Assembly: GCA_963829345.1 (NCBI GenBank)
Contig: CAWHHP010000004.1
Location: 111,986 to 175,985, forward strand
Direction of reading: 5' to 3'
DNA: 64,000 bases
From: an uncultured Chitinophagaceae bacterium
GTDB lineage: Bacteria > Bacteroidota > Bacteroidia > Chitinophagales > Chitinophagaceae
In this document: positions 8,327-10,586 of the stretch, in pieces
How the letters are laid out: each line of letters opens with the position of its first letter
Numbering within the stretch: the first letter of the stretch is position 1
Made by a program: the position numbers and the translations under genes
Notes under the pieces: generated by a model
Database searches by the model: none
Seen by the model: the letters and a program-made list of their open reading frames with translations, nothing else
What the model was told of the DNA's origin: nothing

Positions 8327-9382
8327 ATGATTACTGTCAATAGATTTATTGTGCATGAGGTTGAAAAAGATGTTAAGCAAAAAAATGCAGGAGAAAGCGA
8401 GGAAAAAAAAGATGTTATTTTAAAGTTTTCTAAGACTATTCCAACTATAGATAGTTTTTCAATTCGACTTATTGAAGAAACGCATAAATCCTTCGGTCTT
8501 TCATCCTCCTTAAAAAATACGCAATTTGAAGATGGACATTCAACTGTTTTTCATACTGGGTTATTAAATTATTTTGCTAAAGAAGAAGATGATGTTTTTT
8601 ATAATTACACAAAAAAATCATTGGAAGATTTAAAAGTTCGGATTGAAAAGGAACCTTTTGCAACCGGCGGGTACTACTTGTTTGCAGATTATAAGTATGA
8701 AGATAGAAGATATATTTCAGCAGTACTTTTACGGAAAAAGCATGGCATTAACTTTAAAAATATAAATGGAGTTATTTTACCCATAGACGGTGATAACATG
8801 GATATTGAAAAAATAGGGATGGGTTTTCGTCTGAATTTCGGCCTTTATAATTCAACAGATATAGATAAAAAGTATATGGCATTGGTCACAAATCAAAGGG
8901 ACCATCTTTCTGCCTACTTTAAGGAATGGGTACAGGCAGCAAATATTATTTCAAATGATGCTAATACGAACACGTTAGTTAGGGTTTTAAATGCTGTTGA
9001 TATGCCAAATGATGAAACTGGTAATCCTAAATATAAGTCAAGAGATGAATTTAAAAAGGCATTCTATGATGTAATTGAACATGGAAGCGATAAATCAATC
9101 AATCTATTTGATTTATCAAAACATTTTTATGGGGAGGAACATGAGCAACACTTAATTCAATATGCTCAGAATAACCAATTAACCATTGATCCAGAATTTA
9201 AACGAACAGCCAGTATTTTAAAAAAATTAATAACAGTAAGAGCGAAAGTTGAAGGGATAGAACTTACGGTTGATTATGACAAAATAAATAAAAAAAATGT
9301 TGAGGTTAAGGATGATAGGATTATAATACATTCAAAAGAATTGGTAAGCCAAATAAACTCTCAAAATGATAGAACTAAGTGA
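8327..9382 (+). CDS. Nucleoid-associated protein, YejK/NdpA (NA37)-like paralogue
   Basis: 351 aa. N-terminal VNRFIVHEVEK, internal ATGGYYLFADY and ISAVLLRKKHG, and SAYFKEWV are typical of NA37 proteins. Confidence 0.75.
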   Translation: MITVNRFIVHEVEKDVKQKNAGESEEKKDVILKFSKTIPTIDSFSIRLIEETHKSFGLSSSLKNTQFEDGHSTVFHTGLLNYFAKEEDDVFYNYTKKSLEDLKVRIEKEPFATGGYYLFADYKYEDRRYISAVLLRKKHGINFKNINGVILPIDGDNMDIEKIGMGFRLNFGLYNSTDIDKKYMALVTNQRDHLSAYFKEWVQAANIISNDANTNTLVRVLNAVDMPNDETGNPKYKSRDEFKKAFYDVIEHGSDKSINLFDLSKHFYGEEHEQHLIQYAQNNQLTIDPEFKRTASILKKLITVRAKVEGIELTVDYDKINKKNVEVKDDRIIIHSKELVSQINSQNDRTK

Positions 9383-10586
9383 GGCAATTAGTGGGATAGG
9401 TAAATGTGTAAACAGTGGTGAAAGTACTCCTACTTTTAACGGAAGGTCTATTCGATTTAAATTAACAAATCTAACAGCTAATGATATTGATATTTTTACA
9501 AATAAATTAGGGTTAGAAAATACACACCATCTTAATAATGAAAGTGAAATTGTTATTAATACAAATGAATGTGCTGATAAAATAGTTTTATTTTATAATG
9601 AGGAAGACTTTTGTAACCGGGCAGATAATTATTTATCAGATTTTGAAAATACTTATTTTGTTATTTTCAATGTAAATGGGGAAGTTGTAATGAAGTTGCC
9701 TGGAGAAGTATTCACTAAAGAAAAATCATTATTCTTTAATTATTATTATTTTATTGAGATTTTTAATTTTCTTTTAGAGCAAGAAAATTTCATGTCTTTT
9801 CATTCGAGTGATGAAAAACGATTTGTACTTTTTACATCAGATGTAGGTCCTTTTGATATTAAATATGATTTGAATGATTTGCAGGTTAAAAACTTGGAAG
9901 ATTTAAAACCAGTATATGAAAGGCTAATTAAAGAGTTTCAAAAAATAGATTTTGTTCAGTTTTTTAAATCCGCTATAATTAATACTGTACATAGTTATAA
10001 AATAGAGGAAAGATTTTATAAACTGATACAATCCCTTCCTATCATTTTAAATGTAGCGATAAGAGATCACTATATCTATATAAGAAATTTCGATTTTGAT
10101 AAGATTAAAACAAAGTTTAAAGAGGAGCGTAATACATATTTCGAGAATTTGGAGAAGAATATTGATTCTATTAAAGGGCAGGTTACCTCATTTCCTCTCA
10201 CTTTCGCTGCAACAATTTTCGCAGCGTTTCAAGTTAAAGACCGGCCCACAATTTTGATTCTGGTGTTTATGGCTTATGCTCTTTACACTCTAATTGCCTG
10301 GAAAATCCTTAATATAACAGCATTCAATAAAAGCAAGATAAAGGAGGATGTGGATTTCGAAGAAGACAAGATCAAAAAAGGATACGATTTACTTTATGAA
10401 GAATTTAAAACAGATTTTCAAAGCATAAATAAAAAAATTGATAATATCGGAAACTTGATCGGGATTTTGCGTACTGTGTTAATTGGGTTGCTTCTTTGCT
10501 TCTTTATCTTTGCGGTTTATCAAATATTCTTTGTTACTAAAACCATCCCTCCACCAATTGAGGTTCATATCACAAATAAACCGTAA
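9366..10586 (+). CDS. Hypothetical membrane protein with a large soluble N-domain and three C-terminal TM helices
   Basis: Hydrophobic segments FPLTFAATIFAAFQV, ILILVFMAYALYTLIAWKIL and VLIGLLLCFFIFAVYQIFF. Overlaps the upstream gene by 17 nt. Confidence 0.75.
   Translation: MIELSEAISGIGKCVNSGESTPTFNGRSIRFKLTNLTANDIDIFTNKLGLENTHHLNNESEIVINTNECADKIVLFYNEEDFCNRADNYLSDFENTYFVIFNVNGEVVMKLPGEVFTKEKSLFFNYYYFIEIFNFLLEQENFMSFHSSDEKRFVLFTSDVGPFDIKYDLNDLQVKNLEDLKPVYERLIKEFQKIDFVQFFKSAIINTVHSYKIEERFYKLIQSLPIILNVAIRDHYIYIRNFDFDKIKTKFKEERNTYFENLEKNIDSIKGQVTSFPLTFAATIFAAFQVKDRPTILILVFMAYALYTLIAWKILNITAFNKSKIKEDVDFEEDKIKKGYDLLYEEFKTDFQSINKKIDNIGNLIGILRTVLIGLLLCFFIFAVYQIFFVTKTIPPPIEVHITNKP

Follow-up and report, generated by a model that had tools for sequence, protein, structure and literature searches.

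Two adjacent genes, at positions 8327 to 10586 of a 64,000-nucleotide (nt) stretch of DNA from an uncultured Chitinophagaceae bacterium (GenBank assembly GCA_963829345.1, contig CAWHHP010000004.1, forward strand, positions 111,986 to 175,985; the whole stretch is hereafter called the window), encode a protein of the NA37/YejK family of nucleoid-associated proteins (NAPs) and a membrane protein of 406 amino acids (aa). The pair is a diverged Bacteroidota relative of an already described two-gene system, and its kind is not new: it is probably an anti-phage cassette of the DS-1 / type II PANGU kind that is complete in itself and moves horizontally. An initial annotation, made from the sequence alone, had described two open reading frames (ORFs) coupled by a 17-nt overlap and had read them as a DNA-binding sensor and a membrane effector. 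Both ORFs and the overlap were confirmed in the sequence, and the proposed layout agrees with the architecture that is anti-phage in DS-1 and type II PANGU, and with a remote homology of the predicted effector to DS-1B, the second protein of DS-1. The pair and the regions that define it are:

8327..9382, + strand: NA37/YejK-family gene (351 aa), putative sensor and equivalent of DS-1A / Pag2A, from a full-length match to Pfam NA37
9366..10586, + strand: membrane-protein gene (406 aa), putative effector and remote DS-1B homologue, from profile homology
9366..9382, + strand: overlap of both genes, 17 nt (translational coupling), from the sequence
8167..8326, + strand: AT-rich spacer of 160 nt, 5' of the pair, presumed promoter region, from the sequence

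The ATG of the second gene lies inside the end of the first ('ATGATAGAACTAAGTGA'). The overlap is likewise 17 nt in the closest relative (locus L002) and ranges from about 1 to 44 nt in other loci. The first protein belongs to Pfam NA37 (PF04245) over its whole length (residues 8-333 aligned to model positions 1-316 of 325, E 7e-21), and because this match is full length the two-domain fold of Escherichia coli YejK (PDB 9BE2; PMC11229321) is probably shared; the PDB YejK chain 9be2_A was also matched by sequence (E 4.6e-5). It differs from E. coli YejK in scoring 73.8 bits with the NCBIfam YejK equivalog model, far under the cut-off of 341 bits, and NA37 proteins of the window type are always coupled to a membrane protein and occur sporadically.

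The pairing of NA37 with this membrane protein is far beyond chance. Close relatives of the membrane protein form 64 clusters at 90 % identity, and all of those with a named organism are from Bacteroidota. A scan of species genomes yielded 23 loci, in Chitinophagaceae, Flavobacteriaceae, Flammeovirgaceae and other families, and in 22 of the 22 testable Bacteroidota loci the membrane-protein gene is directly preceded by an NA37 gene, the remaining one having been left out since its contig stops within the membrane-protein gene. When 1.84 billion representative proteins were searched with the profile, 601 clusters at 50 % identity were obtained (E ≤ 1e-3), nearly all of about 400 aa. Distant metagenomic members, found by the profile at E 1e-22 to 1e-41, were looked up, and NA37 was immediately upstream in four of four, with overlaps of 4 to 44 nt. 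The same pair was found with tblastn on a mobilizable plasmid of Pseudoalteromonas arctica, on a plasmid of Acinetobacter baumannii and in the temperate Sinorhizobium phage phi2LM21 (MF614627.1: 43795-45973, locus L044) as p68/p67, with an 8-nt overlap, at one end of the genome beside an adenine methyltransferase and a LigD-like ligase. On the plasmids and the phage the genes are annotated as 'nucleoid-associated protein' and 'hypothetical protein'. A word-indexed search with the broad profile returned the Bacteroidota clade only, and with the proteobacterial pair Acinetobacter and Pseudoalteromonas only. Co-occurrence elsewhere, proposed in the initial annotation as a check on the two-gene module, was thus borne out in the Bacteroidota loci, the distant members, two plasmids and one phage.

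The distribution is mobile and sporadic. In the host's own family the membrane protein is present in 2 of 151 genomes, and a genome of the same genus has neither gene. Some NA37 gene is found in 70 of these 151 genomes (46 %), mostly not paired with this partner. An empty site could not be demonstrated in relatives, because both the same-genus genome and the second carrier lack the gene that flanks the pair upstream (CitMHS).

Host-family NA37 genes seem to have several different partners. At locus L036, NA37 is accompanied by a more diverged membrane protein of 395 aa from the same superfamily (hhalign E 1.6e-11), and at L037 the NA37 gene overlaps a Cupin_5 (DUF985) gene. In a Flammeovirgaceae metagenome-assembled genome (L006:4928-8186) the order is NA37, membrane protein, second NA37, the last gene (350 aa, Pfam E 4e-25) overlapping the end of the membrane-protein gene.

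DS-1 consists of the E. coli proteins WP_000355468.1 (NA37, DS-1A) and WP_000150292.1 (404 aa, DS-1B), carries the DefensePredictor identifier D390 (DeWeirdt et al., Science 2026, PMC13092281) and was validated as anti-phage in E. coli in 2026 (PMC13092281, supplementary tables). It is modelled by NCBIfam NF053868 and NF053869 (DS1_2_antiphage), with equivalog cut-offs of 330 and 315 bits. A broad family profile of 125 representatives (A2) was aligned by hhalign with the DS-1B sequence from the supplementary table of PMC13092281, and the match (probability 96.3 %, E 1.8e-9) was collinear over 343 columns, covering residues 3-370. NF053869 in turn matched the family members P0200 (E 3.4e-12) and P0132 (E 1e-3) as well as the Acinetobacter (3.3e-14) and Pseudoalteromonas (5e-7) proteins, all far under the equivalog cut-off, DS-1B itself scoring 375 bits. 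The window clade is connected to this model through P0200, which its profile reaches at E 6.6e-22 and which matches NF053869 as given above. These profile comparisons place the membrane protein among the remote homologues of DS-1B. The recognisable common part is the helix before the first transmembrane (TM) segment together with that segment, which reads 'Y..YIRNF.FDKIK.KFKEERNKYF...KQV.SFPLTF' in the clade and 'YEIYTKRFSVNKILNELDEKNLEF...QTKALTIP' in DS-1B.

The general organization of DS-1 is the same, with the NA37 gene first, followed on the same strand and closely spaced by the gene of a partner of about 400 aa in which a soluble N-terminal part is followed by a conserved juxtamembrane helix and by hydrophobic helices at the C-terminus. 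DS-1A differs from the NA37 protein of the window in its length (391 aa, 40 aa longer) and in having a Cys-rich N-terminus (C-x2-C ... C-x2-C), which the window protein lacks. No homology to the N-terminal part of DS-1B is detectable in the N-terminal domain of the window partner, and the host is a member of the Bacteroidota rather than E. coli.

The 406-aa protein matched no family in Pfam, PADLOC or NCBIfam. An AlphaFold2 model built with 24 relatives (predicted local distance difference test score, pLDDT, 85) has an alpha/beta domain in residues 1-222 followed by long helices at 224-289, 294-339 and 341-388, and hydropathy is weak at about 276-290 and strong at about 294-320 and 366-390. 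The predicted parts are:

9366..10031, + strand: N-terminal soluble alpha/beta domain (residues 1-222), presumed NA37-binding module, from the AlphaFold2 model
10035..10193, + strand: conserved juxtamembrane helix (residues 224-276), where conservation in the family is highest, from the alignment
10191..10325, + strand: TM1 (about 276-290, weakly hydrophobic), KDRP turn and TM2 (about 294-320), from hydropathy and the AlphaFold2 helices 224-289 / 294-339
10461..10535, + strand: TM3 (about 366-390) followed by a short C-terminal tail, from the hydropathy maximum of 2.64 and the AlphaFold2 helix 341-388

The three TM helices of the initial annotation are thus reasonable by hydropathy and by the model, although TM1 is marginal. 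Modelled alone, the N-terminal domain gave pLDDT 91.4 and a predicted template modelling score of 0.87. With Foldseek neither this domain nor the whole model had a match in the PDB under E 0.06, and the whole model had no match in BFVD. The juxtamembrane motif RDYxxYIRNFxFDKIKxKFKEERNKYFESLEKNIDSIxKQVTSFP is invariant or nearly so in the Bacteroidota clade, and Y258, F259 and P277 are at least 90 % conserved in the broad family; this region is also the part that aligns with the Pseudoalteromonas protein, with DS-1B and with the L036 protein. Relatives from Flavobacteriia have C-terminal tails that are about 30-60 aa longer.

A possible lead to the nature of the membrane module is given by Pfam 8xMP, which had sub-threshold matches in 5 of the 24 relatives, over its full model length and over the helical membrane module (best score 27.9 bits, cut-off 30). 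The window protein, DS-1B and the distant members did not match it, and no literature was found on this family, which is described as an octameric membrane protein family.

The name PANGU has been given to two-gene anti-phage operons built on YejK-like proteins (bioRxiv 10.64898/2026.04.06.716658). In type II, the NAP Pag2A is encoded with Pag2B, a protein with an acidic 'DNA-mimicking' domain (DMK) at its N-terminus and a TM domain at its C-terminus; both genes are required and protection is by abortive infection. Pag2A leaves the nucleoid upon T4 infection and binds the N-terminal domain of Pag2B with a dissociation constant of 19 nM, and the constructs, as single genes or as the pair, were not toxic, the NAP being the activator (10.64898/2026.04.06.716658). 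The window pair resembles this arrangement, Pag2B being compared by description only, in its bicistronic NAP and effector genes, in the presumed N-terminal NAP-binding domain and in the C-terminal TM segments. It is also similar in its cross-phylum distribution, with sporadic members in Bacteroidota and linkage to defence genes, and in that the NAP and the TM effector always travel together in loci of the window type. When the E. coli type II PANGU pair was sought in strain CFT073 only yejK was found, and blastn with the Pseudoalteromonas pair as query gave no match in any complete E. coli genome.

By analogy with these published systems, a dimer of the NA37 protein would normally be clamped onto chromosomal DNA and would come loose once the chromosome is degraded or displaced by a phage. 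The freed protein would bind to the membrane protein at its cytoplasmic N-terminal domain, and the signal would reach the three-helix membrane module through the conserved juxtamembrane helix. This module may disturb the membrane, by depolarisation or pore formation, and growth of the infected cell would cease ahead of the production of phage progeny, as in abortive infection. The defensive role itself, the trigger, the binding of NA37 to the effector and the membrane damage are in this sense all carried over from the literature on DS-1 and PANGU.

Several observations weigh against assigning the pair to the DS-1 / type II PANGU kind. Neither window protein matched NF053868 or NF053869 at E ≤ 10, and no PADLOC model was matched by either of them. 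The initial annotation had been unable to name a matching system; the layout can now be named after DS-1 / type II PANGU. The profile of the clade alone matched DS-1B weakly (E 1e-3, probability 21 %), and the N-terminal domain alone gave a probability of 1.6 % and no alignment, so that the homology to DS-1B depends on the C-terminal module and on intermediate sequences. Some loci, including two of the distant members, are situated among ordinary metabolic genes. In view of the profile results it is concluded that the pair belongs to the superfamily as a remote member, outside the current equivalog models.

The remaining points of this sort concern the proposed trigger. DNA binding by YejK requires R173, R176 and K177 (PMC11229321), and that of Pag1A, the NAP of type I PANGU, the triad K200/R203/K204 (bioRxiv 10.64898/2026.04.06.716658). 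In a MAFFT alignment with E. coli YejK, in which the anchors Y...F that flank the triad align well, the window protein has Q, a gap and H ('TNQRD-H') at the positions of the pore-lining R173/R176/K177. Most of the clade has 'TQQDGE' there; across the clade Q, a gap or G, and H/E/D stand in place of the triad, and the proteobacterial NA37 partners are also without it in the same alignment. The identity in this alignment is about 15-20 %, which makes the assignment of the triad columns uncertain, and the absence of the basic DNA-binding triad from this NA37 partner, a difference from both YejK and Pag1A, is given as provisional. Acidity of the partner domain, the mark of the DMK in type II PANGU, varies. 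Residues 1-275 of the window protein, up to TM1, have a net charge of -12 and a pI of 5.0, a clear acidity; among the 24 relatives the net charge of the N-terminal domain varies from -12 to +1, so that a 'DNA mimic' is not a conserved property of the clade.

The exact trigger could differ in this branch since the DNA-binding triad appears to be missing. The likeliest alternative is a defence system of the same family in which NA37 has ceased to be a clamp on the chromosome, senses a phage component or a DNA form distinct from the bulk chromosome, and then activates the membrane protein. The replaced YejK/Pag1A triad in the clade and in the proteobacterial partners would agree with this, as would an effector N-terminal domain of variable acidity and unmatched fold. 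The low identity of the alignment speaks against it, as does the basic residue (K or R) kept at the position of YejK R280, with further lysines nearby in the C-domain region, and the type II protein Pag2A does co-localise with the nucleoid (10.64898/2026.04.06.716658). This alternative is given a small share of the probability. Equally tentative is the more far-reaching proposal that the sensor is no longer a YejK-type DNA clamp, that it reads another infection signal, and that the three-helix module, if 8xMP-like, may form an oligomeric pore.

An addiction, stabilisation or exclusion module of mobile elements, with the membrane protein as a latent toxin restrained by NA37, appears unlikely. 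Carriage on plasmids, in regions resembling conjugative transposons and in a temperate phage would suit such a module, and so would the tight coupling of both genes. However, a toxin-like reading is disfavoured because the PANGU constructs were reported to be non-toxic, with the NAP as an activator rather than an antitoxin; several loci have no mobile-element genes within the stretch examined, and its homologue DS-1 counts as a phage defence by its score (PMC13092281).

A housekeeping role, in which the partner would anchor the genome's only YejK-type nucleoid protein to the membrane to organise the chromosome, is very improbable despite the frequency of NA37 genes in the family, because the partner is distributed sporadically, the GC content is low, the flanks vary, and plasmids and a phage also have the pair. 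The initial annotation had counted a sole syntenic yejK orthologue in the genome against a defence module, and 8327..9382 is indeed the sole NA37 gene of the host genome; this loses its force because the protein reaches 74 of the 341 bits of the YejK cut-off and the pair, found in 2 of 151 genomes and missing in the one of the same genus, is sporadic among relatives.

The Kiwa system (membrane protein KwaA and DUF4868 protein KwaB), with which the initial annotation had drawn a loose analogy, shares with the pair the combination of a membrane protein and a DNA-associated protein, and differs from it in gene order and membrane topology. The analogy gained no support, since no PADLOC Kiwa model and no DUF4868 model was matched, and Kiwa was rejected as the identity of the pair.

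The pair lies in the stretch of lowest GC in the window (0.27-0.31, compared with 0.35-0.49 across most of the rest) and is separated from the following gene by a spacer of 195 nt. A promoter presumably lies 5' of the pair in 8167..8326. The exact Bacteroidota motif TAnnTTTG was not found there, the only two TTTG being at 8279 and 8298; a sigma-70 scan gave no more sites than shuffled sequences, and the promoter and terminator scans were uninformative.

The flanks vary from locus to locus. Within three genes of the pair in the 23 loci are found genes for type I restriction methyltransferases, AbiLi, AriA/PtuA-like ATPases and AbiEii, together with the conjugation genes for a type IV secretion system coupling protein, a relaxase and TraM. 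The gene directly downstream encodes a HEPN protein in L003:9185-10060 (with a 4-nt overlap) and L004:9134-10003, a TIR_2 protein in L014:9170-10099 and AbiEi in L010:9246-10244; these could be either three-gene variants or merely stacked defence genes.

In the window, the low-GC pair likewise stands beside conflict-type genes. Upstream, 4392..6252 is a tightly packed operon DUF488-DUF488-DuOB (dual-OB), in which the first DUF488 protein matches the PADLOC candidate PDC-M45B (E 6e-53) and the second PDC-M19A and PDC-M45C. Directly upstream of the pair, 6319..8166 encodes a protein of 615 aa with an N-terminal GHKL ATPase domain (HATPase_c_3, E 4e-6), which stands alone and had no match in PADLOC. 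The GHKL ATPase, DuOB and DUF488 genes were considered as parts of the module and rejected; they were next to the pair in none of the 23 loci, and because they are not conserved beside it they are taken as separate modules.

Metal-efflux genes are located downstream of the pair in the window, and in the closest relative, a Ferruginibacter metagenome-assembled genome, the pair likewise adjoins metal-resistance genes. A CzcA/AcrB-type efflux gene at 14498..18745 is apparently split, with about 1.5 kb between the pieces (14498..15427, corresponding to ACR_tran model positions 22-303, and 16925..18745, corresponding to 826-1020 and running into an outer-membrane OEP domain), and could be disrupted or rearranged. 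Two small Cys-rich ORFs with hydrophobic N-termini, 10782..11123 and 13872..14198, share the C-terminal ending ...WQPP(R/K)I(A/S), and metal-related genes begin just downstream of either one.

With this pair, the DS-1 / type II PANGU kind of system would extend into Bacteroidota with 64 clusters at 90 % identity, as part of a superfamily that numbers at least 601 clusters at 50 % identity. The clade is not recognised by PADLOC 2.0 or NCBIfam, and the pair can now be named in annotation. Its members are natural variants that bear on the 'DNA-release' model, in that they appear to have no basic triad, their partner domain is of variable acidity, and the juxtamembrane motif is kept across phyla. 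For the mechanism, the obvious target of mutagenesis is the conserved helix that precedes TM1.

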